Origin: Carcharhinus amblyrhynchos
Taxonomy: Eukaryota
NCBI GenBank assembly: GCA_965287045.1
Contig: OZ336870.1
Coordinates: 41,788,001-41,852,000 of the forward strand
Length of the DNA: 64,000 nt
Direction of reading: 5' to 3'
In this document: positions 3,071 to 42,805 of the stretch, in pieces
Numbering within the stretch: position 1 is the stretch's first letter
Layout of the letters: each line of letters begins with the position of its first letter
Notes under the pieces: model-generated
The model's database searches: none
The model's input: only the letters and a program-made list of their open reading frames with translations
Told to the model about the DNA's origin: nothing
Position numbers and translations under genes: made by a program

Positions 3071-3389
3071 CATGATGTGGAGATGCCAGCGTTGGACTGG
3101 GGTAAACACAGTAAGAAGCCTCACAACACCAGGTTAAAGTCCAACCAGTTTATTTGATAGTAATCCCACAAGCTTTCGGAAACACTGTTCCTTCATCAGG
3201 TGTGTGGAAGGTTCTGATCAGAGAAGGGTATATAAAGTCACACAAAGTCACTGCGTGGGACTTTATATGCCCTTCTCTGATCAGAACCTCCCACACACCT
3301 GACAAGGGAATAGCGTTTCTGAAAGCTTGTGGGATTACTATCAAATAAACTGGTTGGACTTTTACCTGGTGTTGTGAGGCTTCTTACTG
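3071..3389. mobile_element. Penelope-like non-autonomous hairpin element with hammerhead-like cores
   Basis: Inverted arms 3109-3243 and 3255-3389, unpaired 38-bp tail 3071-3108, and ctaacatg repeated at both ends. CTGATGA..GAAA lies on the minus strand at 3171-3200. Confidence 0.8.
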
Positions 3390-4384
3390 CAGCTAACATG
3401 CCCAGAGGAAGGGTCAAAGGTTGAACAGCTGCACAAGTTCCCCCATGCAGCAACAATGCCAGTATGAGCTGCTAGTTCTTTGAACATCCATGCTGATCTC
3501 ATATTGAATTCTTTCATCAGGAGAGGATGGAGTCACTGACAGTTTGCACATAATCAGACAATGAGGAGTCTACGACCAACAGTATTATGGCAAGGTTGCA
3601 CTGTTGAAGGTGCCATCTTTTGGATGAGATGTTAAACAAGCAGCCCTTTCCAATGAATACAAAAGATCCCATGGTGCGACTTTGAAGAACAGGGGAGTTA
3701 TTCCCAGTGTCTCGCCAATACTCATCCTGCAATAAGCATCACAAAAAGGACAGAATATCTGATCATTATCACATTGCTGCTAGTTGAAGTTTGCTGTGCG
3801 CAAATTGGCATCCGTGTTTCCAACATTACATTTCTACCGTGATTCCACCTCCACAGTACCTCATTGGCTGTGAAACACATTGGGAAGTCATTGAGGTTGT
3901 GAAAGGTACTAAAAATAAATGCAAGTCTTTCATTTTTATTTCAAAAGACTGAACAATTGAAAGCTGAAGCCTACAATGTTGTTTCAAACCTGAAGTTAAT
4001 CATTTTTATTTAATCTTAGATCACAAAAAAAAACTTTAAAAGCAGTTCAATTAACTGCAGCACTCTTGTGATTATAGTTGATTTTAGCACACTAAGGATG
4101 CTGGCAGGATGAAGAGTACACACCATTGCATATTTGTAGAATGTCCCTACTGGAAGTGGACAATGTTTTGCCAAAGAGATTATGTATATGAAGGCACAGG
4201 GAAGGCATACGGTTTAATAAATTAAATGCAATTGTAACATCCAACATGAAACATGAAGCTTTACTTTGAATGATCCAGATATCAATGCTAACATGGCTGA
4301 TTTCAGCACAATACCTTGTAAGAAGCTCATTACGGCATTTGTTCTCAAAAGCTTCTTTAATTATTTCTATTTTACCTCTAGATT

Positions 4385-4737
4385 CCCAAAGTGTAGCGGT
4401 AATGCTATGAAGCTAGTAATCCAGCAACCCTGACTGATGTTCGGGTGACATGGGGTTCAAATCCTTCCATGGCAGAATTTAAATTCAATCAATAATTCTG
4501 GAATATAAAGCTAGTAATAGTGACCATGAAAGCATTGTACAAAACTCCCACGAATGTTCCTTTAGTGAAGGAAATCTGTCATCCTTGATTAATCTGGCCT
4601 ACGTGTGACTCAGACCCACAGTAATGTGGTTGACTCGTAACTGCTCTCTGAAATGACTGAGCAAGCCATTCAAGGGCATTAAGGGTGGTAAATGCTGGGC
4701 TTGCCAGCAACACCCACATCCCATCAACAAGTGAAAG
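4385..4737 (+). mobile_element. tRNA-headed SINE, family C (head plus LINE 3' tail)
   Basis: A/B-box-like gtgtagcggt and gggttcaaatcc. It ends caagggcattaagggtggtaaatgctggg...cccacatccc, the tail shared with LINE family X. Confidence 0.8.
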
Positions 4738-5284
4738 TAAGATCAAGCTCCCCCTCAACTTTACTGGCACTCAGCTGTACTTCATCACCACTTCTCTCAA
4801 CTCCTTCACTGCTTCTTTGTTGTCAAGACTGCTAGTATGGCTTCTAGGTCTATGTGAATTGCAATTTCCTCCAATTAAATATCATGTTTTCCATTCACGC
4901 ATGGGATCTGAGCATCACTGGCAAAGCAAATATTTATCGCCCATCTCTAATTATTCTTGAGAATATGGTGAATTGCCTTCTTGAATCTGTGTTGAAGGTA
5001 CTTCCACAGTGTTCTTCAGGAGGGAGCTCAAGGCCTTTGACTCAGCAACTGTGAAGAAGTGGAATAATATTTACAAATTAGGATGCTGTGTCACTTGGAG
5101 GGAAATATACAGGTGATTGTCTTTATATATGCCTTTTGCCCTTGTTCTTCCACATGATAGGGGTCATGGAAGATGCTGTTGAATAAATCTTGATGATTAC
5201 ATTTTCAAGATGGCATACAGTGAAACAGTGCCCAGTGGTGGAGGGAGTTTGAGGCTGTGGAGAGGGTGTCAGTCAAGCGTTTAT

Positions 5285-5995
5285 TTTTTAATTCATTCAC
5301 TGGATGTGGGTGTCACTGGCTGGGCCAGCATTTATAGCCCATCTCTGAGAGCAGTTGACAGTCAACCACATTGTTGTCGGTTTGGAGTCACATGTAGGCC
5401 GGACCAGGTAAGGATGACAGATTTCCTCCTGAACAGACATTGGTGAGCCAGATGGATTTTTCAAACAATCAGCAATGGTTTTGTGGCCATCTTTTTTTCT
5501 TTTAACTCCAGATTTTTATCGAATTTAAACTTCACCGTCTGCTGTGGTGGAATTCGAAGCAATGTGCCCAGAACATTATCTTGGGTCTCTGGATTTCTAG
5601 TCCAGAGACAGTACGGGGCAGCATGTTGGAGCAGTGGTTAGCTCTGCTGCCTCACAGCGCCAAGGACCCATGTTTGATTCCCAGCTTGGGGCACTGTCTG
5701 TGTGGAGTTCGCATGTTCTCCATGTGTCTGTGTGGGTTTCCTTTGGATGCTTTGATTTCCAACCACAGTCCAAAAGATATGCTGGATAGATGGATTGGCC
5801 ATGCTAAATTGACCTTAGTGTCAAGGGGATTAGCAAGGTAAATATGTGGGGTTACAGGAATAGGGCCTGGGTGGGATTGTGGTCGGTGCAGACTTGATGG
5901 GCTGAATGGCCTCCTTCTGCACAGTAGGGATTCTACGATTCTATGATAAAAAACTTAAAAACAAATGTAAATACCACAACGCCACTGCCTCTCCA
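5285..5995 (-). mobile_element. Family C SINE interrupted by an HE1 SINE
   Basis: Tail ggatgtgggtgtcactggctgggccagcatttat at about 5300. The head resumes as aataccacaacgccactgcctctcc at 5970-5994. Confidence 0.75.
5615..5946 (+). mobile_element. HE1 V-SINE, full length
   Basis: Head, V-domain and tail aatggcctccttctgcacagtagggattctacgattctatga. Confidence 0.9.
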
Positions 5996-7051
5996 AGATT
6001 GTGTCAAGCTTCTTCAGTTTTGCATTTTCCTAAATTTCTGATTATTGACAGCAGCTCGGATGTTGGTGGTGTGGTTTAACCATGGCAATACTGCTGAGTG
6101 TCAAGAGGTGATTAAAATCTTTCTTGTTGGCAATGGCCATTGCCTTACACTTGTCTGGTGTAATCATTATTTCCCACTTACCAACCCAAGTCTGAATGTG
6201 GTCCAGGTCTTGCTGTACGCAGGCACAGACTGCTCCAGTATCTGGGGAATTGAACCCTGTGCACTCATCAATAAAAATTGACAACGCAGCTTTAGATGGT
6301 TGAGTCTAGGATTCTGCTCAGTGGAACTCCCACAGCGATTTCCTGGGGCTGAAATGCTCACCTTCCAGTAACCATAACCATTCTTCTTTGTGCTACGTGT
6401 GACTCCAGCCCATGGAGTGCTGTCTCCCTGATTCCAATTGACTTCCATTTTGCGAAGGTGGCTTGATGCCACACTCAGTCAGATGATCCCTCAATGTCAA
6501 GAACAATCACTCTCACATTGAGCTCTTTTGTCCCTGTTTGGACCACATTGAAACCTGGAGATGAGAGGCCCTGACAGAACACAATCTGAGCATCATTGAG
6601 TAGATTATTTCTGAGTAAGGGCTGATGATCGCCATGTCAACAACAGGTTCCATCACTTTGCTGATGATGGGACAGTAATTGACCTGATTGGGTTTGCCCT
6701 GTTTTTCTTTTGGATTGGACTTCCTGGACAATTTCCAATGTTGCCAGTTGTTGCAATGTCCTAACTATATTGAACAGCTCAGCTATAGGTGCGACTAATT
6801 CTAGAAAACAAGTCTTCAGCCTGGACCTGTTCAGTTTTATGTATCCAGCATTCTCAGCCATTTCCTGATGTGACCTGGAGTGAATTGAACTGGCTGAAAA
6901 ATAGTTTTTGAGAGGAAGGCGTGGGGGATGTAATTCCTCAGGAGGATGCCGAAATAGATTATCCCTTGGCTCAGTGAGCCTGCTCCACCAATTAGATTGC
7001 TGCTAATCCTCTACTAAATGCCATTTTCCTGCACTGTTTCCATGTGCCTTG

Positions 7052-7615
7052 ATAGAAACAGAGAAACTAGAAGCAGGAGGAGGCTATTCAGCCCTTCAAG
7101 CCTGCTCCACCATTCATTTTGATCATGGCTGATCATCGAATTCAATATCCTGATACCCCTTCTCTCCCCTATCCCTTGATTTCTTTAGCCCCTGGAGCTA
7201 TAAAATTTCTTCTTCAAATCAGATGTTTTGACCTCACTACTTTCTATGATAGTGAATTTCACACATGCACCACCCTTTGGCTGAAGAAATTTCTCCTCGC
7301 CTCAGTTCTAAAAGATTCATCCCTCATCCTCAAACTAAGACCCCTAGTTCTGGACTCTCCCACCATTGGTAACATTCTTTCTGAATCCACCCTGTCTAAC
7401 CCTGTTAGAGTTTTATAAGTTTCTATGAAATCCCCTCTCACTCTTCTAAAGTCCAAACAATATAATCTTAGCCAACTTAGTCTCTCCTCATATGACAAAG
7501 CTGCCATCCGAGGAATCAGCCTGGTAGACCTTTGCTGTATTCCCTCTGCAGCAAGGAAATCCTTTCTCGGATAAGGACACCAAAACTGCACACAATACTC
7601 CAGGTGTGGCCTCAC
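7052..7615 (-). mobile_element. CR1 (HER1-like) LINE 3' end
   Basis: ORF 7259-7624 reads VRPHLEYCVQFW...YEERL...RGDFIETYK...RNFFSQRVV. The 3' UTR ends in a ttcta-type repeat. Confidence 0.9.
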
Positions 7616-7638
7616 ATTAGTCACCGTAAATGCACTGA

Positions 7639-7897
7639 TTCAATATAATTATAACATTGCAACAACTGACAATATTGGAAATTGTCCAGGAAGTCCAATC
7701 CAAAAAAAGCAGGACAAACTCAATTAGGTCAATTACTGTCCCATCATCAGCAAAGTGATGGAACCTGTTGTTGACATGGTGATCATCAGCCCTTACTCAG
7801 CAATAATCTGCTCAATGATGCTCAGTTTATGTTCTGCCAGGGCCTCTCATTTCCAGGTTTCAATACAACTTTGATCTAATACAGGAACAAAAGAGCT
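7639..7897 (+). repeat. Inverted duplicate of 6521-6774 (LINE family X RT segment)
   Basis: Aligns end to end with the reverse complement of 6521-6774. Confidence 0.85.
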
Positions 7898-8110
7898 AAA
7901 TTATTGAACACGCTCAATAACTGGGCTTCCACAGCCCTGCGAGGTAAAGACTTCAACAATATAAGCAGTAGTCACTCCTCTCAATATTGTCACAAACAGG
8001 TGCATCTGTGACTGGTAGATTTATAAAGAGAGGGGTCAACTAAGGTTTTCTGTTGTGTTCGGACTCTTTCCACCTGTGGCAGGCCCCAAACCCGCAACCT
8101 AGAAGGACAA

Positions 8111-8230
8111 GGGCAGTGGCACAGTGGTTAGCACTGCTGCCTCACAGCGCCAGGGGCCTGGGTTCGATTCCCAGCTTGGGTCACTCTCAGTGTGGAGTTT
8201 GCATGTTCTCCCCATGTCTGCATGGGTTTC
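8111..8230 (+). mobile_element. V-SINE 5' half
   Basis: gtggcacagtggttagcactgctgcctcacagcgccagggg...gggttcgattcc. Confidence 0.85.
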
Positions 8231-8351
8231 GTCCGAAGTAACTGGAACAAAAAGAAAAGCACAATACGGGAACAGGCCCTTTGGCCCTGCAAGCTTACAC
8301 CCATCATATGTTCCTAACTAGACCATCCATTTTTATCCCTCTATTCCCACT

Positions 8352-8459
8352 CAGAGGAAATCCACGCAGACATGGGGAGAATGTGCAAACTCCATACAGG
8401 CTGTCTGGATTCCTGGTGCATGAGGCAGCAATGCTGACCACTGTGCTACTGTGCTGCCC
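8352..8459 (-). mobile_element. V-SINE 5' half, preceded by a minus-strand CR1 tail at about 8245-8350
   Basis: gaggaaatccacgcagacatggggagaatgtgcaaactcca...gaggcagcaatgctgaccactgtgc. Confidence 0.8.
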
Positions 8460-8469
8460 TGCGAGACGC

Positions 8470-8598
8470 GTTACAGGGCAGCACAGATAGACTTCAGCAG
8501 TTCAAAATGCAGCACACAACCATTTTCTCAAGGGCAATTAGGGATGGGGAACAAATGCTGGCTTAGGCAGTATCATATTCCTTGAAATAATAAATAAA
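8470..8598 (+). mobile_element. LINE family X 3' tail
   Basis: cagcagttcaaaatgcagc...ttctcaagggcaattagggatgggg. Confidence 0.7.
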
Positions 8599-8639
8599 CC
8601 ATTGACTACTTCAATGCTTTCACTTTGCAGTCTCCATCA

Positions 8640-8940
8640 ATTTGAACCCTGCTCTTTGAATCCTGACATGCACCAATTAATACTCACCCAGGGACCTCCT
8701 CCTTATTATTGTCCCCTAGTCCACCATCATCTCCATTTCTAATTCTCAGCCTCTGTTAAAATCCCTCTATGGCCTTACCTTTCACTATCTCTTCAAACGC
8801 CTAAAGCCCGACAGCGCTCCAAAAACTCAGCACTCCTCCAATTCTGGCCTTTTGTGCATCTGCCACCCCCCATGCATCACTATTGGCAGCTCCACCTTCA
8901 CCCATCCAGGCCCTGAAACAATCCATTGCTCTCTTTCTCT
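8640..8940 (+). mobile_element. L2 LINE 3' fragment, old
   Basis: aaatccctctatggccttacc...cactcctccaattctggcct...attggcagctccaccttca resembles the L2 C-terminal KSLHGLAP..RSS.SGLL..IGGRAF. Confidence 0.55.
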
Positions 8941-9341
8941 CTCCAACCTTTCATGCTTTTGTTGCTGTCCCAGAATAAAATGGTTAATAAACAGGAGCCG
9001 TGAAGCAGTGCTCACGCAGCATGGTTAGTTTCCATCAGGAGGGCACAGTATCCATTTTTTGACACTGAAGTGAAACCCACATCAGCAAACATGATTAATT
9101 TCCCATTTTTGAATATACAGCAATGACCCTCTTCATTGGGGAACGGTGGATGTTGATTCACAAACACCAGTCAGTAGTTTCTGAGTGTACATTCTCCATA
9201 TCGCCTGGAGCATTTCACTTGAAGAGGGTCATTGTAGTGTGACCAAAATGTTTACCCATTTTGCTTACAGGCGAAGAAAGAAAACAAGCACCTAAAGCTG
9301 GAACAAAAGGTGTCCCACTGCTAAATCAGTGTGATACAGCC

Positions 9342-9537
9342 CCGGTTCCTGGCCTTTTGGCTAAGATGAAGCATTAGATCAAGCCCGGGAGGGGGTGCAA
9401 TGCCTCATCCTGTCAGCTTGGATCTTGTTTGATCAAGCCCAAGATGAGATGCAATGTCTTATCTTGTCAGCTTGGATCTTGTTTGTCCCTCATGGGGAGG
9501 ACTGTGATTGGACCTAAGTTGAATTGGCTTTTTTGAT
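9342..9537 (+). pseudogene. U2 snRNA-derived element or pseudogene with an internal 54-bp tandem duplication
   Basis: ggccttttggctaagat at 9351-9367 is identical to U2 stem-loop I. gtccctcatggggaggac resembles stem IIb and aattggcttttttga resembles the Sm site. The repeat units are 9377-9430 and 9431-9484. Confidence 0.7.
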
Positions 9538-11329
9538 TCAAAATAAAGTACTGAAAGGTACCATTAAAAAAATGATACATCTCCGGTTTGCACCCAAATT
9601 AGCCCTGTAACACAAACCAATTTTGCACCCAGCATTACATAGTGCAAATTATTATCTTTATAGTAATGCTATTAAAACTGGTTGAAAGGCAATGCTTAAA
9701 TGTTTCATAAAGTAACACATTTAGAAGATGGGACGTCTGAGAATAGGATTTAGTTTTAGGAATACTTTTTAACCACCTTTTCTTCATATAGTTGCAAGGT
9801 GAAGAAGATAACAGACCCTTAAGGAAAAAAGATAGATGGAAAATATAAGCAAGTACCTGGCCAATAAGGAATAACCTCCCTCACAGAATTGTAGTTCCCA
9901 CACCAACTAGCAGCACATTGGGTGAAATACTTCCACATTTAACATGGGGTGTTTGAGAATGATAGAGTGGCCGGGGTAATATTAGGGTAATATTAATTTT
10001 GGGATTACCTGAAAACTATATTTTGTGTGACATAATTCACTAATCTCTCACAAACATTGGCAGGTTGGAACTTAAAAAAATACTGGCTAGTTAGCAGTAT
10101 GGAAAACCTTCTAGGGATCCCACAGAAATATGGTAATATTACAATCATGTCGTAAGACTTTAATTTGAAGGGCTGCAGAATTATTCAAATATGCTGCCAA
10201 GTACACTGCAAGCTTCTAGCTTTGCAAATTTTAATCTTCTTTGACTGTTTGTTTGTTACTTAATTATCCTCTGGCAAATAACACAACAACACACAAGTTG
10301 CCCATATGGGGCTGCTCTGATAAAAAAAAACACAGAAAGTCTGTACAGAGATAATGGATATATAAAGCAAGTCAATTAATTAGAATGTAGGTCCATCTTC
10401 CTTGTGTTGGCTTGATGCTTTTCCAAGCAAAGCATTGTGGGATTGCATTACTGTGTTTCCAACAACACAGCTGTAAGGGATTTAAAGTGTAATCTTGAAC
10501 AACAGTGCCTAGACTGTTATCATACAATTAGTTATAAACCCTCAAACTGTCGGTCACCATGCTCGCTGTGTTGACAATCCACAGGGTTTGCTCACCCTCC
10601 ATCTGCAGTTTGTAATGTTTGTCCATTCTCTGGAGTCTGTGAAAATGGGTCTTAGCATGTCGGTAAAACTAAAAATTCAAAGTTGTAGCATCTGTGAAAA
10701 TACACAATCCTATCAGGTAGTATTGCTAGTTATGAGCTTTTGCATAGATAAGGTGCTGTCAAGTGAGCAATCTAGAAATTTTGAAACAAACACTAAAACT
10801 GTATTTTTCACTCCTTTTCTAGCAACTTTTTCTTTCCATCTCATCTCCTATCTAGAAAGTACTCACTCCTTGCCAAGACTTTATTTCACAATGCTTGTGG
10901 GAATTCTGATATATCTACCATCTGGCCATTCTACCTATGTAAGCTTAGGAAATGAGCGTCAACAGGCAATTCAACAGCAAGGCATTATCTATCCATCGTG
11001 TACAAACAGTTCAGACAGAGGGTCACTGGATATGATTTTCTACCTTGCTAACTTGTAGTCTAATTGTAATCCCAAGCTTACACCAGGTAACTCGGTAGAA
11101 AGTAGAACCTGAAACCTAGCTGGTGTGTATGGACCAGCCATTTACTGGATAACTGCCTGAATGACTGAGCGAATACGATGGCTCGGTTTTAAACAGGAGA
11201 CTGATTTCCCCCTCCCCCACAGAAGACATTCATTTTTTCAATTACTTTTCATTAGTTAAATTGAAGAATCACAACTGAGTGGAGGCTTGACACAAAATCT
11301 AACCTTTCAGGTTATCTTTCTCCTTCGTA

Positions 11330-11493
11330 AGTTCTCTGCCTAAAGGCAGGGTCAATTCATAGTTCCATGACTTGCATCACGGGTGAGGCAAGGAGGCAGG
11401 TCCAGAATCAACCCCAACCACAACAGAGATCGCATCCCATGCTGTTGGCACCAATCTGATGCCAGCCATCCAGCCAACTGAGCCAACCAGCCC
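11330..11493 (-). mobile_element. Old tRNA-derived SINE head
   Basis: Minus strand gggctggttggctcagttggctgg...gccaacagcatgggatgcgatc has an A box and a degenerate B box. Confidence 0.5.
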
Positions 11494-11670
11494 TCCAAGA
11501 AGTCAGAGTTGCTGTGGCAACATATACTTTACATGTGGGCTGCAGTCTGGAGCTATGGATAGTGATGTAGAAGCTTCAATTTTTCTCCATCACATGGCTG
11601 AGCAGGAATCACACCCATCCTGCCATTGGAAGGATTTACAAGTTGACTTTCAATTTATTTGGCTGCATTA

Positions 11671-11969
11671 GGATGGCATGGTGGCATAGTGGTTAGTACT
11701 GCTGCCTCACAGCGCCAGAGATCCAGATTCAATTCCGGCCTCGGGTCTATGTCAAGTGTCTGCATGGGTTTCCTCTGGGTGCTCTGGTTTCTTCCCACAG
11801 TCCAAATATGTGTGGGTTAGGTTGATTGGCCATGCTAACTTGACCCTAGTGCAAGGGGGATTAGCAGGGTAAACATGTGCGGTTATGAAAATAGGGTCTG
11901 GGTGGGATTGTGGTTGCTACAGACTCGATGGGTCAAATGGCCTCCTTCTTTACTGTAGGGATTCTATGA
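11671..11969 (+). mobile_element. HE1 V-SINE
   Basis: Head, V-domain and CR1-type tail gggattctatga. Confidence 0.9.
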
Positions 11970-12189
11970 GTTTAGATATTTGGATCTGCTGATTTATTAT
12001 TGTCTATTTGTGTTTCTAATTTACAGGTCTGTCTAGGGTCATATGTTCAGTAATTAATATTAATTTGAATGAAAGATTTCAGTTATGTGGAGAAACTCTC
12101 TCCCTCTTTCTCTCTCATCAGTTACTATGCCCTAAGATAATCATCTATCGCAATGTTAATTAAGGGTTAAATATTGGGCAGGGTATCAC

Positions 12190-12637
12190 AGATAATCACT
12201 TACTCTTCTTTGCAATATGCTATGGGATTTTTTTTGCATCACCCAAGGCAGCAGATGGGGCCTCAGTTTATCATTTCATTAAAACAGCACCTCTGACAAT
12301 GCAGTTATCCTTCAGTACTGCATTGGAGTGTCAGCCATGTCACAGTGCTCAAGCCCTGCAATGGGGCTTGAATCCACTTGTAATGACTTCAATGAGGCAC
12401 ATGAGGTTGCTCTCTTAGAGTATGAGCTCCCTGATTGCCTGCCTAACCGGGGGCCTTACTTGTATATAAATGTGGGAGTATCAGGTCCAATGGCATTTCT
12501 GATTCTGACTTTAGTATCTCAACCACTCTCAGAGCAGAATAGAGTTTGCAGAAAAAGGGAATCTAATGAAGGTGCATTGGTCTCTGGGACGTTATTTCAC
12601 CACTTCTAACGAGAGCACTGCCAACTGAGCCATAGCC
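12190..12637 (-). mobile_element. DeuSINE (SacSINE1-like) interrupted by a solo LTR
   Basis: atgggatttttt...cagcacctctgacaatgcag...cagtactgcattggagtgtcagcc...ggcttgaatcc. The head resumes as gagagcactgccaactgagcc. Confidence 0.7.
12379..12599 (+). mobile_element. Solo LTR, 221 bp, with 5-bp TSD
   Basis: TG...CA termini, CCACT at 12374-12378 and 12600-12604, and an internal TATATAAA. Confidence 0.8.
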
Positions 12638-13600
12638 AGCACAGGTTTCATACACCACCAGACAGAATCTATCTATCAGCTGATCATTACTTGACTCAGC
12701 ATGATAGCAACTTTAACTGACTTGCTCACTGCCCCCCTAGTGGTTCAGTTGGTAATTACATCATTCAATGCGTAATTGAGTTGCAATGGCCAGCAAGATT
12801 CCAAGTTCACCTTTGCTGAGTTAGCTGGTCTCAGTTAGAGTATATTGAGCCCTCAAATGTTCCTGCGTTAAACAGGAAAAAGCAAAATTCAGCCCAGATT
12901 CCTGTGTAGTTCAACATAAACACAACAGCTCATGGATGCTTTCGTGTATATGTGGTTAAGGATGAGACAAGGTTTCAAAGCTTTCAGCAGCCCTTGCAGC
13001 TATTCTCTGCTCTTGTTAATAGTATGTAGAATTCCAGCTCACCTTTAATTGTAATTAAACCATAAAGCCATTGAATTCAGTGCTGAGAGCCCACACTTAA
13101 TATCACTGTTCCCAGGAACTCCAGCTGAGATTGGTCATCACTATGGAAACCGCGGCAAAGCAAAATTAGACGATATTCCAAAGTACAGCATGTTCGGAAT
13201 CTGTGTAATCACTCAACGTCCCCCATTAAACATGTGAGGGGGACACACAAAGTGCTATTTCCTCATTAGTATGCTAACATTGTCTTCCAAAATTAAATAT
13301 TTTTAAAATAGCACGATCAATTAAATTCAAAATGAATTTTGTACTAGATGTTGCAATATTATAAATGTAGCAAGTTTCAAATGTTAGTTGAGGAATGCAA
13401 CTTGTCAGGGTTGATTTTGTAGAAATTGTAATCCCCAGATGATTGAAAAATCTGTGATGCAACATAGAAGGACGAGTGAGTTAAAGGATGTGACGGTGAG
13501 AATTTATACTAATTTAGGGAAAAAGGGTATTTAAACACTCATATTTACAGTTGAGCAATTAGAAGAGGGAATGGTCATAGTTGAATCATACTTGAATCAT

Positions 13601-27969: not shown

Positions 27970-28550
27970 GACTGTGCGGGAGGCAACGGGGGTCAAGAAA
28001 AATCAAATCAAAATGACAAAATTAAAATAAAGGGAGAAAAATCAAAGCATAAAGATTCCACAGAATCAGAGATGGGAGCCAGTGACTGCTGATGGACCAG
28101 GTTCATTGGAACATAACTTGCAGACAGTTTAGCCAGACAGAATTCCATTGTTAGTAGCGCGGCCATTTTATTCCATCATTATTGTTTGTAGAATGATCTT
28201 AAACCGTCAGCACTGCAGAATACAAACCCTCCCCTGTCTATAATGATGTTGGAGGTCCTTATCAGAACTGAGAAATGATGGCATCTCTTTGGTATTAATG
28301 AGGGATACATGCTGCCAACTCGTCACTGTGTTATTCCATAAGATTGTTTGATATCTTTTTGATTTCCTTTTGGAATATTTCATTTTTGCTCATGCTAGTT
28401 GTGATGATGTCTCAATTTTAAAAGATAGCCATTGTCATTAGTATTTATTAGATTTGAGCAGATCTCTTTTGGCATTACTCTGGTAGTTGGTACACAGAAT
28501 ATTACAGCAGATGTAGCGGCCGCGATTTCACGGCTGCATTGCACATTGCA

Positions 28551-28727
28551 CAGTAAAAAGTCTGACAACACCAGGTTTTAGTCCAACCGATTTATTTGGT
28601 AATACTCACAAGCTTTCGAGGGGACTGCCTCTTCAAATAAATCGGTTGGACTAAAACCTGGTGTTGTCAGACTTTTTACTGTATTTACGCCAGTCCAACG
28701 CCGGCATTCCCACATCATGACTACTAT
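28551..28727. mobile_element. Penelope-like hairpin element inside a MITE-like repeat (about 28516-29040)
   Basis: Perfect 48-bp arms at 28551-28598 and 28634-28681, tail on the right, TSD ttgcacat(t/c)gcac. Confidence 0.85.
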
Positions 28728-29222
28728 TTGCACATCGCACCCAGTGCAGAGTGGGTTAGAGTGGAGTGTGGCGGGATGTAACGTCATGTTGGCAAGAGGG
28801 GCATTCTGTACTTGGGAGATCATTTGGCAGAGAAGCCCTTTGGATACATTTAAATGTATTTACACGCATTTAAATGAGGTCCCTGCCTTTTTGGGCGGGA
28901 ATTTTGTTGCAGCAACAGGGAAGGGCAGGGATAATCTTTGAATGAGATCTTGCTTCGAGATTCTTGTTCCCACAGTGTCACAGGATTTTCTGGTATCATC
29001 ACCATTTTCATCTGCGGTGAACGCCGGAGGAAAATCCCCCTCCCTCCATATTTTTTCCTGCCCCAAAGATGTTTCCCTTGGGTTTTTTACAGCAGTGTCC
29101 GGAGATTATCTTCTATTTCTGCAGAGTTCAATGTCCTCCAGGAGCTGGGTTGGCTACTCTACAGATTTTTGGCAGGAACCATGGCCACCCCATTCATATT
29201 TCAGTTGATTTGGGTGCAAGCC

Positions 29223-31290: not shown

Positions 31291-31355
31291 CATTTATGGA
31301 AAAAGTTGATCTGGACCATTTTTTGTGCCATTCATGCATTGCTGAATAGTTTTTG

Positions 31356-32487: not shown

Positions 32488-32812
32488 AATCCACAGAATC
32501 CATAAAATCCACAGAAGGAGGCCATTTGGCCCATCAAGTCTGCACCAAGCATAATCCCATCCAGGCCCTATCCCCATAACCATTTGCATTTATCCTAGTT
32601 AGTCACCCTGACACTAAACGGCAATTTAGCATGACCAATCAACCTAACCTGCACATCTTTGAACTGTGGGAGGAAATAGGAACACCCAAAGGAAACCGAC
32701 ACAGACACAGGGAGAATGTACACACTCCACACAGTGACCCAAGTTGGGAATCAAACTAATCTCCCTGGTGCTGTGAGGCAGAAATGCTAATCACTGTGCC
32801 ACCGTGCCGCCC
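32488..32812 (-). mobile_element. HE1 V-SINE, full length
   Basis: Tail through head ...ctgtgaggcagaaatgctaatcactgtgccaccgtgccgccc. Confidence 0.9.
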
Positions 32813-33811
32813 TGTAAATTTGCATCTTTACAAGTTCCATGTGCTAAATCATATGTGCTGCTATGGTCCCTGTGCCCCCCTGGCTCCCCACATGGGGAGC
32901 CCATCCATGTCAGAATGGCCATTCAGGTAGTTTTTGCATGATCAATTAGCCATTAGTAGAATGGAGGCAGAATTCCTACCCTGCATAGGCAGAAAGTCTT
33001 GCCTCAAAGAACGATTGGCCAATTGAGGCTGATAGTTCTTGATGTACTGGTATTGGCAGCAGGGGCGGTGGCCACTGTCTGTACTGGACTTGGGCAGTGT
33101 TGAGATGAGCTACGATGGATTGGAACCAAATGTTTGGAAGTTGGTCAAAGGGGTGGAGACGATATTTGAGAGGTCATGTGGGGAAAGACAAATTCGGAGA
33201 GGGCCAGTCAAAGCAAACTCGGACAGGGCCCAATACCAGCCCTGAAGGAAACCTGCCAGGCCTACTACTTTGCATGGGCCTCATCCACAGCCAGTGGACA
33301 TTAACTGAAGGCCTTAATTGGCCCAGATGTATAATTGCAGTGGAGACAGGGGCAAGCAGGTATGCAGTGGGCAGGCCTAGTTTTAGTTGGATTTAACTTG
33401 GTACCCGCCTTCAAGCCCACTGGAGGAGGAGTGTTAAATTCAAGCCCATATTTCTGTAGCAGAATTTCAAACACCAAATGCAATCCAACAGTGAAAGAAG
33501 CTGACACTGTTTGATATAATGACTACCACTATAAGTGGACAGGGTATCAGAGCTGATAGGGCCATTGAGTGAGGGAAGAGTTCAGGTTGGGAAACCCTAA
33601 TGATACACTTGTTTGCATGGTGTAGAGCATTTTGATACAAATGGATTCCATATCTAGAAGCCAGCCTGATTAAAAGGCTTGGCTGCTTGCCAGCTGAGTA
33701 ATGCTCCATAATATACCCTTTTGTGGGGGTTGGGATTAGATATTGCTGGGTCATAGTTGAGTGCATAGAGTGTAGCTAGATGGCAGGGGATAGGGCTGGT
33801 CAGTGGGCAGG

Positions 33812-33943
33812 ATGATGTGGGTATGCCGGCGTTGGACTGGCGTAAACACAGTAAAAAGTCTGACAACACCAGGTTTTAGTCCAACCTATTTGTTATCAAA
33901 TAAATAGGTTGGACTAAAACCTGGTGTTGTCAGACTTTTTACT
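33812..33943. mobile_element. Minimal Penelope-like hairpin element
   Basis: Perfect 42-bp arms at 33850-33891 and 33902-33943, a 38-bp tail, and a perfect 13-bp duplication agtgggcaggatg at 33802 and 33944. Confidence 0.85.
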
Positions 33944-34260
33944 AGTGGGCAGGATGTCAGAAAAGATTGTTGAATGTTTGTTGGGGGCAGAAACTGTATG
34001 GGGAGAGGCAGAGATTATGTGGGAGTGCTGGAGATTCAGAAAGAAAGTTGGAGGTCATGGGAAGATTGACAATGAAGAGGTTGGAATATAAGAGGAGGGA
34101 GCAGAGAGATTATAGTGGGAGTGAGGGAATGGTGGTTATATATTAGCTAATTGACCTTGGGAAACACTCCCCTTATTCTTGAGCCACAAGAGATGCGGTA
34201 GCAATCTTATGGATCCAGTCCTTCTCACCAGCCTTAACTGGTGAAATTCTTAGCCCATAT

Positions 34261-34557
34261 TCATAGAAGCATAGAATCCCTACAGTGCAGAAAGAGACCA
34301 TTTAGCCCGTCTGCTGCACTGACAGCAATCCCTATTCCTCACAACTCCAATATTTACCCTGCTAGTATTTACCCAACACTAAGGGGCGATTTAGCATGGC
34401 CAATCAACCTAACTGGCTCATCTTTGGACTGTGGGAGGAAACCGGAGCACCCAGAGGAAACATGTGCATACTCCAAACAGACAGTCAGCCAAGGCTGGAT
34501 TTGAATCCAGGTCAACCATGGTGGCACATTGCTGAACCATCATGCCACCATGCCGCC
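34261..34557 (-). mobile_element. HE1 V-SINE
   Basis: atagaatccctacagtgcagaa...ggactgtgggaggaaaccggagcacccagaggaaac. Confidence 0.85.
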
Positions 34558-35898
34558 ACACTGGGGAAAAGACAGAAATCGTACTAAAGTGAAGGTACAC
34601 AGCCTCCTTCAGACCAAATGACTAGTTCACCTCCTGATAGAGTATTAGTTGCCTGTCACTCAATCAACCATTGTTACACATGGGTGGATTTAAGGTGAGT
34701 TGTGTCCCTGCTTTAGATTTTTAACCATTTACCCACCAGTTTAAAGGCGGTTAAACGCAACCCTAATATTAAATCTTTTATGATCAATTCAATCTATAAA
34801 AGACTGACATGAATATTCACAGTCAGAGATGTTTTTAAAATGGGGTCAAATATCTTCATTTTCAAACGTTAAAAGGAAAGGAGCAAGAAGAGATTTTTAT
34901 TTTAGTTTTCCATTCACTTTAAATTCCTTTGGTTTCCTTTCTCCTTACTCTTTTTTTCAGTTTTCAAATTTTAGGTAAGGATTTTTTTTCTTCATTTATG
35001 GGCTTTCTTCTGTGGTTATATAACACATCAGCAGGATAAACTCTCCTGAATGTTTAATGGGATGTCTTTTTAGCATTTAGCCACAGGTACTTATCTACAA
35101 CCCTTGACTGATTGCAAGATTCTATCAATTGGACTGGAATCCTTTTTATAGTGAAATCATTTACCACAACAGAACTTCCTTATATTAGTCACTGGCTGAC
35201 TGAGTGTCACTGATCAAAATGGATTATGCAGCAAATTTGGCAGCTAGCAAGCAGTGAGACCTACTTTAATGTTATTTCAAAGTAAAAATGACAAAATTTC
35301 TGACGATTTCTTCTTCGTCAGAGTTTGGGTCATATCAGAGAAATTGCCATCCTGATCATTTCTGTTACTGAGCTGGAACCAATCCTTTTGCAACATGGTT
35401 GCATTCATCGGGAATCTATATCTGATTGGATCCATGTGCACCCAGTAGACCCCAGTTAGACTGCCAGTTTCAATATGTGTGTGCCATGCTCTGCCCACAT
35501 GCTGGATACATTTTTAATTGGTCAGTGGAGAATCAATGGTGCTGCTAACCATGAAGAAAGCTGCCCACAGAGGTTGAACAACTTACGATTTAAGCTTACA
35601 TCTTAGATGCTCCAATCATTTATTTCACTATATCTAAATATTTACAATTAAAAATGAAAGGAGTCACTGTATTTCCTTCATAGGTTGCTAACTGTAAGAG
35701 TTATTTCATTGTGATTGGCTGCTTACCCTGTTTGATGGAAGTCTGGAGATCACCTTGACTTGGTGACAAAAGCAAACTGATGTTGGGAAAGGGGGAAATC
35801 AGAGACACCTGGAAACATGGCAGCCAGGTCCACTTAATCATAGAAGAAACACTGTGTCAGTTTCTCAATGGCAGTAAAGCCTCCCATGATTAAATCCG

Positions 35899-36095
35899 GA
35901 TATGGAGATGCCAGCATTGGACTGGGCTGAGCACAGTAAGAAGTCTCATAACACCAGGTTAAAGTCCAAAAGGTTTACTTGGTTTCACAAACTTTCAGAG
36001 TGCTGCTCCTTCATCAGGTGAGTGGAGTCACCTGATGCAGGAACAGTGCTCTGAAAGCTTATTGGACTTTAACCTGGTGCTGTGAGACTTCATAT
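35899..36095. mobile_element. Penelope-like hairpin element
   Basis: Tail plus inverted arms, hammerhead-like cores at 35991-36018 (-) and 36031-36060 (+), and TSD catgattaaatc at 35885 and 36096. Confidence 0.85.
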
Positions 36096-36780
36096 CATGA
36101 TTAAATCAGAGGGTGAAAGGGGCTGGCACAAGATTCTTGACTGTTGACTTATTAATGAGCGAATTGACACTCATTATCTTTGAGCTTATTGCAATTTAGT
36201 GTTGGCTCAGGGACTGAATGCCTCCCTATTCCTCATGAAGACTGTCCAAAAATGCCTATGCCTGAACAAGAGTCCTGACCTTCGGAGGGCAGGGGTGTGG
36301 GGGGGTGGGGGGATTGGGGAGTTGGGAGTTCTCACTGAATTTCAACCCTCTGTCCCAGCCTACTCTCCCCTCTGCAGACTGTGCCTCACAATCCAATCTC
36401 ATGATCCCCATCCCACTCTCACTCACCTTTAGTTGGGGGCTTCACAATGACCCTCGGCCTCTGGTGGGTGCATTGCCTCCAGCTGCCACTGCTCTTGCTG
36501 GCACTGGCAGCATGAGGCGCTGCAGGCCTCTGATTGACAGTTTCCAGCGATGAGATCTCTACCACTGAGGAATTCAGTCACAGGGGAGACCCAATGCTGG
36601 TCATGTAGGTGCCTGAAGGGTTCTTGACTCCACAAGGCCCACTCCATGGAGCTGATGGGGACTCCCCTCCAATTCTCCAACTGGTAGTTGAGCTCCCCCC
36701 TTGACCTAACAGAATGTGGGTCATAGTTATAGCTCATTCACCAAGGTGTAACTTCATCAAGGGTTCTTACAATTAGAGTC

Positions 36781-36946
36781 CTAGAATCATAGAATCCATA
36801 CAGTGCAGAAGGAGTCCATTCAGCCCAACGAGTCCACATCCCTCCTAGGCCCTATTCACGTAACCCACACATTTATCCTACTAATGCCCCTGACACTAGG
36901 ATCAATTTAGCATGCTCAATCAACCGAACCTACACACCTTTGGACT
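36781..36946 (-). mobile_element. HE1 V-SINE 3' part
   Basis: tagaatcatagaatccatacagtgcagaagg...caatttagcatg. Confidence 0.85.
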
Positions 36947-37357
36947 AATTAGACTAAGAGCATAAGAGTGAAAGTCCTCGCCAGCTCAATGTTTTGATTG
37001 CAACCTGAAGAGACCACAACAGGGCACCCTCTGTAAATGCACAGTATCACTGATAGAAACTACGCATGTTCAGAAGTTGTTGTCAGTGTCAGGAGAGTGG
37101 TGATGATGAAACTTGACCTTTCTGCCATTACCTGTGTCGAATCCGACACAGTTTTAGCCAAAGTTTCAGCAAAGTTTTGACAAGATAACTGAAGTTTATA
37201 AATCCTAAGCCTTTAAATGGACAAGCTGTTTGCTTCACACGGTTTCCATCTTTATCACCACTTTGAGATGATTGGAATGGTCTCAATCCACCTGTCTACC
37301 CTTGAGTTTACTAACAGGAGTCTGGAAAATGTACAGTGTATACCAAAAAGGAACCAT

Positions 37358-37467
37358 GGGTGGGATTTTCTGGCCCTGACAGCAGTGGGCATCATCACAG
37401 GTGGGACAGATAGATTTGGCAAGCATGCAGCAATGCCCGCTGATGTCAGGACCAGAAAATCCCGCTC
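37358..37467. mobile_element. Short MITE
   Basis: TIRs gggtgggattttctgg and ccagaaaatcccgctc, flanked by cat and tat. Confidence 0.6.
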
Positions 37468-37608
37468 TATAGCAATTCATCTCATCCAGTGGATTATTTT
37501 TGGAATGAAAATACCATCCTTATTTAGACAAAGTCAGCACCCAGTTTGGTTACAACAAAGTCCCCCACGTAAAGTAGTAACGTAAAAGTAAAGTAACATT
37601 AAAGAGAG

Positions 37609-37783
37609 GTTTATTTATTCATCACAAGTAAGGCTTACATTAACACTGCAATGAAGTTACTATGAAATTCCCCTAGTCGCCACACTCAGGCACCTATTCG
37701 GGTCAATGAATCTAGCCAGCACATCTTTCAGAACGTGGGAGGAAACTCAGGCAGACACAGGGAGAATGTGCAAACTCTACACA
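37609..37783 (-). mobile_element. V-SINE tail type B
   Basis: cacaagtaaggcttacattaacactgcaatgaagttac...ggagaatgtgcaaactc. Confidence 0.85.
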
Positions 37784-37874
37784 AAATGCTGGTGTTAGGT
37801 GGAAGGAGAACTGTTGACCAGAACACTCTGAAGCTCCCCTGGGGTTAGATCTGTCAGCTTGATAGGACTTTGGT

Positions 37875-38001
37875 TAGCATCTCATCCACAAAACACTTCT
37901 AACAATCCCTTCCCACTTTGCTAAAGTGTCAGTCTGAATTATACATTGAAGCCTGTGGTAAGGCTTGAACCTCTAACTTACTCCCAGCTGAGCCAAGCTG
38001 T
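37875..38001 (-). mobile_element. DeuSINE head fragment, old
   Basis: catctcatcc...gtgtcagtctg...ggcttgaacc...ctgagccaagctg. Confidence 0.5.
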
Positions 38002-38230
38002 CCTGGTTACTGATGACAAAGTAATCACATCTCAGTGCTCCTTATGGTTTTTTTTGCTATGTCACTAATAATTTCTGATTTTCATATGGAATATGTATTA
38101 AAATAGCTAAAGGACACTGATCATGATGACTGAAGATGTATGGGGTTAGAAAATCACACCAGGAGCTAACTTGTTTACAAAAGTAAACAATTGATAGAAT
38201 GGTTTTACTGTCAATGCGGCATATTGTGGG

Positions 38231-38395
38231 ACAAAGAACAAGGAAAAGTACAACACAGGAACAGGCCCTTTAGCCCTCCAAGTCTGTGCCGATCATGATG
38301 CCCTAACAAAACGAAAAAAGGCCTCTGCCCTTACTCAGACCGTATTCCTCTATCCCTTCCCTATTCATGCACCCATCCAGATACCTCTTAAATGT
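38231..38395 (-). mobile_element. CR1 3' UTR fragment
   Basis: acaacacaggaacaggccctttagccctccaagtctgtgccgatc. Confidence 0.75.
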
Positions 38396-41300
38396 AATGG
38401 TTTCAACTTGTGTTCCATTGCAATGTTCCTTATTTGTGCACACAATTCCTATGAACCAAGTCATGCATGAACCAACTTAAAGCCGCGTGCCTTAGCAATG
38501 TGTCACCTGAGCCAAACCTGGAAATTGCATGGGCTGCCTACCTGCTCTCTCCAAAAGCCAGGAAAGAAATCACACTAATGGACCATATTGTTCTGATTAA
38601 ACCTACTAACCAGTTTTATCATGTGAAAGTAAGTAAGTTAAACGAGTGGCAAAAAAAATTGTAACACATCAGTGCATTTTCTTGAATATTTGAAACCATG
38701 AGTGATACCACAGTATTTAAAATTCTCAAGAGACTGTATGACCGTCTCTGTTGATTTTTTTTAAAAACATATACGAATTCACAGTTTTAACTCTCAGAAT
38801 TCTGGAGCTCTGCAATTAAAAGGAAATAAGTGAATTTAACACACGAAACAAAGCTGTGGCAATTAGGCCAGGGGTTCATGTAGTCTCACAGATTAAAAGA
38901 TTATTTTCTTCACTCAGCGATTTTTTTTTTAAAGAAGTCCCAAATCCTTTCCAAACAGGCACATAAACAAGTTTTCAATTAATTATTTATTCAAGGCAAA
39001 TAGATCATGAATTGCCAGTTTTTGACGCCTAGATGTTTTTTTACATTTTCTAGCACTAGGTAGGCATTCCAATTAGTTTGAGCCTGAGCAATCATTATGC
39101 ATCTCCACTCATAGTGACAATCTAGCATATATTAAAATGCATCTGAAGCCCTGATGGTGGAACTATTTATAGAGAAAGACATAAACAAAGGTGGATCAAT
39201 CTTCTTTGCCTTTCAGTGTTAAACTTAAAGAGCATCCATACATTCTCTCAAAACTCCCAGGTCCCCAAGTGAGGACAAAGGACAGAGTAAATCATATGAA
39301 AAACAGCAGCTATAGATTCCATTTTAAATATCCTAGTGCCTAGGATTGGCTACTATTTAAACTCAGACGTAAAAATATGCTATAATTTGAAAAGGACTGA
39401 TTTAGTGAAGGGTTCCATAAAAAAAAAGTTAATCTATTTTTCAAATGCTGCTTTGACCTGCTGGTTGTGAATTTTCAACACTTTTCATTATTATGTCATC
39501 ACGGTATAATTACTTTACGCAAAATCTCATCAGCATTCATCACAAGGGCACAGTACTCATTTAACCATTAGATTATGACTGCTGCCCTTGTTTAAAATAC
39601 ATAATAGTTGAAACATCAGATAAGGCACAGTGTTCTAAAGGCACCTGGCGAGAAATGCAAGGAAAGAAATCCTAGCCTGAACAATCCCATTTTATCCCCT
39701 CTCCTAGTTCTGTTCCTCTAAAATGATCTCAACGGCATATTGACCTGAACAATAGAATGAAGTATATGGGCTGGCTGGGCTGTTTCAGTCTTTACTTTCC
39801 TATGGGTCTCTGCTGCATTCATTGTAATCTAATTGAAAATAATAACATTCAGTATACGATCAGCATGACAGTAAGCAAGACGTCGAATCAAAATAGTCAG
39901 TAATTCTTACATCCTGTACTCCAAACTATTTCAAGTGAATGTATTCAGGAAAATCTTTGGTCTGAAATCAGCTCTTTACAAAACACATTCTTTGAGGTAA
40001 CACCGCAAAACCAGCAGAACGATCTGAGCACATTTCTTATAATTAGATTTTGGCTTTGTGTGCCAATCACAGATTTATCAACCATTCAGATAAACTGCAT
40101 CCTTCCTGACAAGATTATTGAAGCAATATCTTTGTATGTACATATGCTGACATTTACAAGGCATCCTCATGCTTAATCCTAGCTCACACTCCTGTACCCT
40201 ATCACAGCAAAGGGGGATGTCAATCAAGCTGGAAGGATATAGCCAGCACATCTGGTTAATCACTGCACTCACATTTGTGCCTTGATATTTATTTCCAGCC
40301 AGAGATCTCTGGTCTATTCTCCCTGTCATTCGAGAGCAATGTGTATAATTTATTAAGTAGCTAAACTGCATTATGAATAAGGGATGAGGCCAGCCATGGG
40401 ATTGAGAGAATGTAGATACAAACTCACGACTGTGAACTGACTTAGGTGAGCTTTGCGCTCCAAAAGATGACGACATCTGTTTCAAGAAGTTGAAGTGTGG
40501 AGGAATTTTGATGTCCGCTGCTGGGGCTCTGGTCAAAAAAAAACCTTTAAAAGAAAGTTCATGGAAAGACAATCTGCTAATGGGTTTTTGCAGGCTGTCT
40601 CAGCATATGGGAGGAAATGTCTCAAATTTTCTAGATGCCCCAAGCCTTCTCTACAATCTTAAAAATAACACATATGTTGAATAAATTGAGACGAATGGCA
40701 AATGAATTAAAATGCGTTTTGTGAAATAAGGAAAAGGACAATCTTAAATTAATCCTCCTTTCTGAATAACATTTTCCTTTTACTTGAATCAAGTATTATG
40801 TTTGGTGCACTTGATTCACACATACAAATAATCATTAATCGTAATGCGGATACATGTCCATGTGTAGCAATTCTGGTATCTCCTCCAAGTGGCCAACCCT
40901 TATGTATGAATCTAGATAGTGAGCAAAAATGTAGACTGATCAACCATAAACCTGATTTCAACCCATGTTCATTCATTTTCTTACTCAATATTCATACAGG
41001 CTCCCTTTCCAAATGGATGACATTCAGGATCAGTTGCTCTTCCCAGACGACAAACTTGATGCAGATAGAGATTCCCAAATGTGATGATCGGCAAACAAAG
41101 CACAGGTAAGACATAAAGCATCAAAGTTGTGACTTTCTGGTCTTTATGCTTCAATATCCATGATAGGTTGTTTCTATTAACTCATCAGTGAGTTCCTTCC
41201 ATATAATTGAGCTAAATGACAATAACACAATCTTCTATTGTATGCAACATATGTTTAATGATAATCACTCCTATTGCATGGACAGAATTAACAACACAAT

Positions 41301-41590
41301 TTTAGTTCTTTCAGAAAGCAGCAATCATTTTGTTTAGCTTAGAGCTTAGGAATATGCAGGATAAGGGTCAGCACATTTAACTCTGAACTCAAGTTCAAAG
41401 TGCAGACTGCCAGGATATTAGTCCATGTTTTCCAGTAGAGGCGATAAGAGCTCAACATTAAGTAATAAATTGGGTAGCAGCTTTTGGATTTGGCAAATGG
41501 ACAATCAAACATGGAAAATAGGAAAGTACTGTTCAGGATGGTCAGCTAGTTCAGACATTACACCTTAACAATATCTCACTAAGAGACTTA

Positions 41591-42805
41591 GGGAGCGATC
41601 TTACCCAAACAATTCTAAGCGCCAAATTGGGAGAGAATCGCATACATTTTTGGATGCGTTCTCAAACACAATCTTATGCCACTTAGTGCAAAAAAGGAGG
41701 CAAAGTATGATTCACACCAATAAGTGGAGTGGACAGAGTTTATTTCAGCTGGAAATCCAGCTGCTGACAGCTAGAGGTCTCCATTGTGCATGTGCCTTGA
41801 TCTCTCAGTGTTCTATGTACAAGTGTACATACTATACTGAGAGATCTATCACTCCCCCTGGGATATTGCCCCCTCCCCCCCCAATCCTGCCAACCACCAC
41901 CTCCCACTCTGGGCATCATTTCCCCCCCCACCCCCTCCCGAATTCTGACCTCCCCAGCTAATCACTGGCCTCCCTGGTTGACATGATGTGGAGATGCCGG
42001 CGTTGAACTGTGGTAAACACAGTAAGAAGTCTCACAACACCAGGTTAAAGTCCAACGGGTTTATTTGGTAGCAAAAGCCACTAGCTTTCGGGTCTCTGAC
42101 CGTTCATCAGATGAGTGGAGCGTTCTGAGTCATCCCCTGTTTGCGATCAGAACTCTCCAGTCACCTGACGAAGGGTCAGATGCCTGAAAGTGAGTGGCTT
42201 TTTCTACCAAATAAACCTGTTGGACTTTAACATGGTGTTGTGCGACTTCTTATTCCCTTGATGATCCATGGCCTGATCCCCTCCCCCTGCCAATCACTGT
42301 CCTGATAGCCCCCCTGGATGATGGTTGCCCTAGCCGATCCCTGATTGTCCCACCCCACTTAGGGCCCATCTCTTGGCACTGCCCAGTGCCAGGATGTCCA
42401 ATGGACCATGTCAGGGTACTTAGTGGGCTGTGCCAGACAGGTAGTGCCAGGCTGGCAGTGCCCAAGGGATACTGCCCCCCTGTCCCCGAACACTTGGGGG
42501 CATTAGCAAGGCTATTACATCTGGTCCCCATAGTTTGGGGACCATAGGTGATCCTCGCCAGTGAGGATCTCCATTGGAGAGGCCAGTTAGGCAAGTGAGC
42601 CCGGACGATCCTGTCTTGGCCTCACTAATAATATGTAAATTCACACTGAATATTAGAATTAGCCTTGCACCCTTCCCCAGCGTGAGGCTGATTACACCAG
42701 CTTCACAATGCCAGTAGTGCTGCGAGAGACAAGAAATCAGGCACGAATGTCATGCTGGCTCACCGCACTGGTTGACCGGAGGCACAAGCTGGTAAGATTG
42801 CCCCC
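41591..42805. mobile_element. PIF/Harbinger-like MITE, about 1.2 kb, with a nested Penelope-type hairpin
   Basis: TIRs gggagcgatcttacc and ggtaagattgccccc, flanked by tta and tca. The left part is homologous to 47338-47600. Confidence 0.7.
41982..42253. mobile_element. Penelope-like hairpin element
   Basis: Tail catgatgtggagatgccggcgttg..., inverted arms, cores at 42083-42110 (-) and 42164-42190 (+), imperfect TSD tccctggttga/tcccttgatga. Confidence 0.85.

Follow-up and report, generated by a model that had tools for sequence, protein, structure and literature searches.

Short inverted insertions in the genome of Carcharhinus amblyrhynchos as products of a Neptune-type Penelope-like element, and the symmetric target site of its young copies

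Penelope-like elements (PLEs), the sister group of telomerase, insert with inverted ends and a tail, and both the reason for these features and the way in which the insertion is completed are described as an open question (PMC11167929, PMC8557442; these and the other accounts cited here by identifier are drawn on in part, and what is said of them extends to those parts). Head-to-head architecture is itself published, and self-priming or nuclease resolution have been offered as its cause (PMC3846280, PMC8557442). In this work we analyse five small hairpins in 64,000 nucleotides (nt) of the shark Carcharhinus amblyrhynchos (contig OZ336870.1, positions 41,788,001 to 41,852,000 of the forward strand; ‘the window’ below means this whole stretch), and find that they are the shortest end of a continuum of insertions of a Neptune-type PLE. 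Young copies of this element mostly lie in a site reading TG-N16-CA, with a target-site duplication (TSD) of 12-13 bp and with one tailed and one tailless arm, and they are probably one-off Penelope products, made by a dimer that nicks both strands and primes synthesis from both cut ends.

Pen2 and Pen2a of Adineta vaga (PMC3846280; scheme in PMC8557442) share with the shark element an inverted 5′-truncated copy, a TSD, head-to-head arms, a one-sided tail of 30-40 bp overlapping the start of the open reading frame (ORF), and a pseudo-long terminal repeat (pLTR) whose TATA element is readable both ways. Those parts of the Adineta account give, however, TSDs of 8-10 bp, AT-rich or microsatellite targets and a tail that is optional or often one-sided, whereas the shark element has 12-13 bp in TG-N16-CA and one tail in every two-armed copy read. 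The Poseidon element PAc of Anolis carolinensis (PMC11167929) is alike in having two internal start sites for reverse transcriptase (RT), which define the tail, and a hammerhead in the pLTR; it belongs to another clade and prefers ATT, and the portion of its account used here mentions no stagger, symmetric site or complete two-ended product. In vitro its protein nicks and extends both strands, and it is modelled as a dimer. For the shark element we infer the same from DNA alone.

Twin priming by LINE-1 (long interspersed nuclear element 1) also uses two target 3′ ends as primers on the element RNA, the complementary DNAs (cDNAs) being joined by microhomology. Its second primer lands at variable internal sites, giving an inversion without duplicated arms; the primers proposed for the shark element, in contrast, would bind at two fixed positions separated by 38 nt and thereby copy the same sequence twice. 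Animal non-LTR retrozymes (10.64898/2026.07.22.740005) are likewise hammerhead-bearing sequences derived from PLE pLTRs, but they are tandem and thought to move as RNA, while the shark hairpins are inverted one-off products with varied junctions. A retrozyme identity was rejected on the inverted arms and on the absence of a whole hammerhead motif from two of the five hairpins (loci 2 and 3 below). The parts of PMC9977147, PMC12910113, PMC5753468 and 10.64898/2026.07.22.740005 drawn on describe no symmetric PLE target, and neither a symmetric site nor twin priming is reported for PLEs in the literature searched, a scope that leaves aside supplements, older Penelope papers and Repbase/Dfam. Taken by themselves, the hairpins are ordinary products of a known class; what sets them apart is the symmetric site, the near-fixed stagger and the one-tail rule.

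The five hairpins and their autonomous partner

All five hairpins are present as the original prediction had described them, with inverted arms and a one-sided tail of ~38 nt; the TSD length it gave, 8-13 bp, became 12-13 bp in every one of them once mismatches were allowed. Their parts are the following:

3071..3389, minus strand: locus 1, older subfamily; tail 3071-3108, tailed arm 3109-3243, tailless inverted arm 3255-3389
3063-3074 (left) and 3389-3400 (right), no strand: TSD of locus 1 (11/12), the final 4 nt of the left copy being common to the tail end
3403-3405 and 3058-3060: half-sites of locus 1, CAG on the right, degenerate on the left
3170..3199, minus strand: minimal hammerhead motif in the tailed arm of locus 1 (motif type from PMC4209133)
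3299-3328, plus strand: degenerate mirror copy of the locus 1 hammerhead
28551..28727, plus strand: locus 2, young subfamily, reverse orientation; tailless (longer) arm 28551-28633, tailed arm 28634-28681, tail 28682-28727
28534-28536 to 28742-28744: target of locus 2, with CTG 28534-28536, TSD 28539-28550 / 28728-28739 (11/12) and CAG 28742-28744
33812..33943, minus strand: locus 3, young subfamily; tail 33812-33849, arms 33850-33894 and 33899-33943
33796-33798 to 33958-33960: target of locus 3, with CTG 33796-33798, TSD 33802-33814 / 33944-33956 (13/13) and CAG 33958-33960
35899..36095, minus strand: locus 4, older and decayed, without a clean symmetric target; TSD 35885-35896 / 36096-36107 (12/12)
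35989-36017, minus strand: hammerhead motif of locus 4
41982..42253, minus strand: locus 5, older subfamily; tail 41982-42022, arms 42023-42128 and 42147-42252
42082-42110, minus strand: hammerhead motif of locus 5
41965-41967 to 42267-42268: target of locus 5, with CTG 41965-41967, TSD 41970-41981 / 42253-42264 (9/12) and CA 42267-42268 (TG-N16-CA)

Paired arm columns number 125/135 at locus 1, 48/48 at locus 2, 44/45 at locus 3, 36/40 at locus 4 (the best local block alone) and 92/106 at locus 5, and folding gave z-scores of -18 for locus 3 and -15 for locus 2. When an intact copy served as BLAST query against the window, these five were the only family members returned. Two subfamilies are represented, a young one (loci 2 and 3, 95-100% identity to the intact copy) and an older one (loci 1, 4 and 5, 72-81%). 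The tail ends at the start codon of the element's ORF, and that of locus 2 continues ~8 nt into it. The arms had also been said to match within a copy even where copies differ from each other, which holds at locus 1 (arm-to-arm identity 0.92, compared with 0.87 to the best other copies) but not at loci 4 and 5, where the arms (0.90 and 0.87) are less alike than each is to the best other copies (0.95); homogenisation of the arms in old copies was discarded as unsupported at these two loci.

Searching with locus 5 returned 30 loci where homology starts at the tail and reaches, over as much as ~1 kb, sequence that codes for RT and nuclease, and a protein search found open frames of up to 979 codons in the genome (G000, 2.92 Gb). 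Three loci (L044, L045 and L046) hold intact elements with open frames of 917 codons, or 893 amino acids (aa) from the first Met, adjoining pLTRs that have 98.7-100% identity to locus 3 over its first 79 nt. The Penelope origin suggested in the original prediction is supported by this adjacency of the arm to an intact ORF for RT and GIY-YIG nuclease. The proteins closest to that of the element are from sharks, and Pfam recognises RVT_1 in the 893-aa query (E 1e-9). The five best fold matches in the Protein Data Bank (PDB) to the predicted full-protein model (predicted local distance difference test, pLDDT, 89.8) are structures of TERT, the telomerase RT, whereas ranks 1-12 for the predicted C-terminal domain (pLDDT 91.7) are GIY-YIG nucleases, led by I-TevI (template modelling score by target 0.82, root mean square deviation 2.0, E 0.019) and including T4 EndoII, UvrC and R.Eco29kI, none at E <= 0.001. 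PF01541 is found in 42/54 aligned members, and Y, G, R, H, E and N are invariant in their nuclease domains; PDB sequence searches gave weak matches only (T4 EndoII, E 1.4; maturase RT, E 0.054). In addition, C16, C21 and C24 are invariant in the members' alignment and form a CX4CxxC linker before GIY-YIG. A CX2-5CxxC linker before a C-terminal GIY-YIG is a feature of Neptune, common to Nematis (PMC8557442); the shark linker would fit either, and the Neptune-type label, which follows such described features, is putative to that degree.

In L044, direct repeats of ~400 nt flank the ORF on both sides and are joined by one inverted copy, the pLTR forming a partial tandem that overlaps the ORF start. 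The pLTR carries what reads as a minimal hammerhead of the type in PMC4209133, with its core, a variable stem II with compensating changes, and a palindromic stem III. Rfam gave no hammerhead match, its sub-threshold matches to microRNA hairpins being rejected, and sense RNA of the hammerhead and tail regions folded no better than shuffles (z 0.76 and 0.64). At least 8 stem II variants recur in pLTRs of the young subfamily, most of them keeping the pairing, between nearly invariant flanks. The two pLTRs of intact L044 (4585-4987 and 7608-8011) bear different variants, which means that arms of mixed type could come from a tandem RNA.

Inverted arms and a near-fixed TSD would also suit MITE-like DNA transposons (miniature inverted-repeat transposable elements), with terminal inverted repeats and a TSD of fixed length. 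The arms, however, correspond to the 3′ end of an element that encodes RT, and in longer copies they run on into the ORF; the ends are ragged and asymmetric by ~38 nt, and the partner encodes RT and GIY-YIG; this collinearity refutes the MITE reading, to which we assign practically no probability. The original prediction had set a fixed-length TSD against a Penelope origin. The TSD comes close to that, at 12-13 bp, and the Penelope origin stands regardless, the near-fixed TSD being a property of the element's endonuclease.

Target site, element ends and junctions

An exact TSD was read in 92/107 young insertions and in 32/40 of a second set, fetched later. Lengths among the 92 are 10 nt in 3, 11 nt in 3, 12 nt in 38, 13 nt in 30, 14 nt in 10, 15 nt in 6 and 16 nt in 2, a distribution close to a fixed 12 with chance extension and some true 13, and 90/124 of the pooled exact TSDs measure 12 or 13 nt. 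The flanks of the 38 12-mers have T at -3 in 36, G at -2 in 38, C at +15 in 36 and A at +16 in 36. Overall, TG-N16-CA brackets 70/92 TSDs and N16 or N17 81/92 (control: 6.5% of 20,000 random positions). The second set of 32 gave 25 N16, 4 N17 and 3 with neither, bringing the pooled young sites to 95/124 for TG-N16-CA and 110/124 for N16 or N17, and the target preference reads (C)TG-N2-[12 bp]-N2-CA(G).

Sites without the insertion are seen in contigs of other organisms. For locus 3, contigs of X5, X6 and X7 join 33801 to 33944 and show CTG-N17-CAG with one TSD copy, whilst X4 appears filled; for locus 2, contigs of X5 and X9 join 28547 to 28737 and show CTG-N16-CAG with one TSD copy, X6 joins with a 7-nt shorter join, and X7 does not bridge the locus. 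Extremely asymmetric insertions also occur within TSDs, in which the tailed arm is cut down to its tail, or in which only the tailless or only the tailed arm is present (L170, L101, L048 and L058); the site is TG-N16-CA at L170, L101 and L058, and N17 at L048.

Exactly one tail is present in all 167 two-armed insertions read, 147 of which (from L043 onward) were chosen without use of the tail, and no tail-tail pair occurs among them. In the first set of 128 pairs, 124 were found tailed plus tailless by script and 3 more, with a mutated tail, by inspection (two of these look like paralogues), the remaining one being cut by the locus edge; the second set has one tail in 40/40 (37 by script, 3 by inspection). 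On the RNA the arms have two start positions, one at the start codon of the ORF and the other ~38 nt upstream of that codon. Around these positions (+1 and +39) each end varies by a few bases, within ~10 nt, and has 1-4 nt in common with the TSD end: zero shared bases were seen in only 21/86 and 25/82, when chance would give ~53% allowing for TSD extension, or 73% by a simpler estimate. As the sharing exceeds chance, both ends look like priming events, and the two priming positions are uncorrelated within an insertion (rho -0.18, p 0.13).

The same ends bear on the suggestion that a palindromic double-stranded DNA, made off the chromosome, is integrated by a concerted two-strand cut and owes its tail to endonuclease resolution (PMC8557442). 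The symmetric site and near-fixed TSD do resemble those of DDE integrases, and the one-tail asymmetry could be a processing step. The scatter of the ends and the bases that they share with the TSD are, however, as in priming and unlike a cut end; no TG-N16-CA site was seen across the tail within the element, and target-primed extension has been shown for a relative (PMC11167929). We therefore regard such an intermediate as unlikely.

The hairpins are one extreme in size: exact matches to one young arm motif number 38,055 across the genome, which makes the element a large source of palindromes in the genome, and two-armed head-to-head insertions span 111 to 5,724 bp (19 pairs having been removed as duplicates by flank match, L162 probably wrongly). 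Palindromes of 3.6-5.7 kb lie at L043:1744-7058, L138:302-6025, L054 and L055; the arms are ~99% identical at L043, L054 and L055, and each L043 arm contains a 979-codon open frame. Insertions L084:1478, L138:302 and L162:3816 differ in length and share a 12-13-nt TSD and flanks, as do L136:376 and L150:276, suggesting that one host-repeat site was struck independently; L162 was removed as an L084 duplicate by its flanks, yet is of different length.

Were the hairpins a non-autonomous family whose members are moved in trans as transcribed units, as originally proposed, they should repeat their junctions. Yet 42/44 resolved short copies (45 examined) and 35/37 of a second set (40 fetched) have distinct ones. 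Genome searches covered the exact junctions of loci 2, 3 and 5, leaving out loci 1 and 4: those of loci 3 and 5 are unique, and that of locus 2 has one other place, where the tail is on the opposite arm and the subfamily variant is another. The many loci with identical junctions that the original prediction had looked to as a check were thus not found for these three. A one-mismatch neighbour of the locus 3 junction does recur, 20 times, perfect palindromes centred on one hexamer recur as well (5 among 50 matches listed), and non-autonomous PLE partners are described elsewhere (PMC9977147, 10.64898/2026.07.22.740005). However, all 16 examined copies of the recurrent junction have a 4-nt microhomology, the tail belonging to the shorter arm in 11 of them and to the longer one in 5, so the recurrence marks microhomology hot spots. 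The notion of a mobile hairpin family is largely refuted, and we hold it to be very improbable. Instead, the hairpins are one-off products with no family spreading as a unit, likely dead on arrival, which supports the alternative of the original prediction that the palindrome is made per insertion.

The longer arm is the tailed one in 22, the tailless one in 40 and neither in 10 of the first set (n=72); the second set (n=37) has 18, 17 and 2, respectively. The rule that the tailless arm comes first and is the longer in every case was abandoned, given these 18 tailed and 17 tailless in the peak class. Junctions have 1-6 nt of microhomology, blunt joins or short templated inserts. Inserts of the latter kind, at L075, L081, L121, L183 and others, hold short copies of nearby element sequence and presumably resemble polymerase-theta end joining.

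A further way of making a palindrome is by fold-back, where a single cDNA from one nick folds on itself and self-primes, the second target end being joined later; this has been proposed for Adineta Penelopes, whose palindromic junctions are read as self-priming in PMC3846280, and the original prediction had named a similar process as one of two possibilities. In agreement with it, the two arms share a hammerhead stem II variant, and hence the template variant, in 31/34 insertions (shuffle mean 7.0), which also explains why the arms had been seen to match, and arm lengths are coupled (within 25 nt in 14/20 resolved copies, 27 examined; permutation mean 3.6). Fold-back from the tail, however, predicts a loop that is always on the tailed arm, whilst the tailless arm is the longer in 40/72 and 17/37. 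Since a loop requires an arm difference of at least the microhomology + 3, 17/50 microhomology junctions (9/29 in the first set and 8/21 in the second) are too tight for it. In addition, three insertions (L090, L230 and L238) have arms of two different stem II variants, each known from other copies, that is, from two templates. Fold-back is a poor fit to such junctions and seems to us rather improbable.

Genome-wide counts by spacing are 543 (0-30), 757 (31-60), 1724 (101-130) and 373 (161-190). In the peak class the longer arm ends 131-143 nt from the tail end in 35/37, the lower edge of this range being partly set by selection. A TATA-like box stands ~30 nt above this position, which itself lies upstream of the cut made by the hammerhead and falls at what we take to be an initiator-like motif. 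Hammerhead cleavage was rejected as the main source of arm ends, as the cut-site bin holds 757 and the bin upstream 1724.

A proposed two-ended insertion mechanism and what it would mean

Returning to priming from both cut ends, the steps could be as follows. Two GIY-YIG domains would nick one strand apiece, at a point 2 nt 5′ of CA(G), so that 3′ overhangs of 12 nt remain, and each overhang would prime one cDNA at one of the two RNA sites, usually on the same RNA. Arm ends at 131-143 may reflect run-off at the mRNA 5′ end, at a predicted start site below the TATA-like box, whereas long arms would come from priming at the downstream pLTR-ORF junction of tandem transcripts. The cDNAs would then be joined head to head at their 3′ ends through end-joining by the host. 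The anole Poseidon protein needs ORF sequence downstream of its start sites (PMC11167929), and if this need holds here, hairpin transcripts could not be templates.

Several observations weigh against this reading. The 893-aa query itself has no Pfam GIY-YIG match, and the C-terminal fold match is weaker than the E 0.001 threshold. Among young sites 14/124 lack TG-N16/17-CA, the older copies have it perfect in 2/14 and in three of four letters in 7/14, locus 4 does not fit the symmetric target, and at locus 3 the spacing is N17 and the left gap measures 3 nt. Some insertions have a single arm, ~21/34 loci with unpaired arms being unassigned to a class, and the spacing counts leave out the bins 61-100, 131-160 and >190. 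In the anole, moreover, the start site is alike on both strands, and tail-tail and tailless-tailless pairs would therefore be expected; the preference there is for ATT, with no symmetric site in the portion of the account drawn on (PMC11167929). The strict one-tail rule needs an added asymmetry beyond the data, and all mechanistic steps are read from footprints in DNA.

The wider possibility that the enzyme is a two-ended, site-preferring retro-integrator has, in our judgement, an even chance of being right. Its dimer would read the TG-N16-CA half-sites, leave integrase-like 12-nt 3′ overhangs and make two cDNAs from two fixed sites of one RNA, and this one reaction would account, across the whole PLE class, for inverted pLTRs, for the tail on one side only and for run-off hairpins of ~250 bp. 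Given a defined target, a stagger, two priming sites and intact natural ORFs, the two-ended model is directly testable. A target-primed retroelement with a symmetric site and a near-fixed TSD blurs an annotation rule, by which hairpins such as these would be filed as MITEs.

Other repeats in the window

A 163-nt inverted repeat (93%) at 6547-6709 and 7702-7864, around 992 nt, is unrelated to the Penelope element and encloses a LINE-type RT fragment at 7259-7639 (minus strand), and a short unrelated hairpin with 37-nt arms lies at 46774-46869 (microRNA matches sub-threshold only). Young LINE 3′ fragments at 51310-51980, 53094-53795 and 63147-63837 are 88-96% alike, contain a frame for the RT C-terminus and are, we assume, CR1-like. 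A dispersed repeat family at 1003, 5622, 8112, 11677, 25456, 57076 and 61278 is presumably a tRNA-like SINE (short interspersed nuclear element), and a 35-bp minisatellite occupies 1297-1575.

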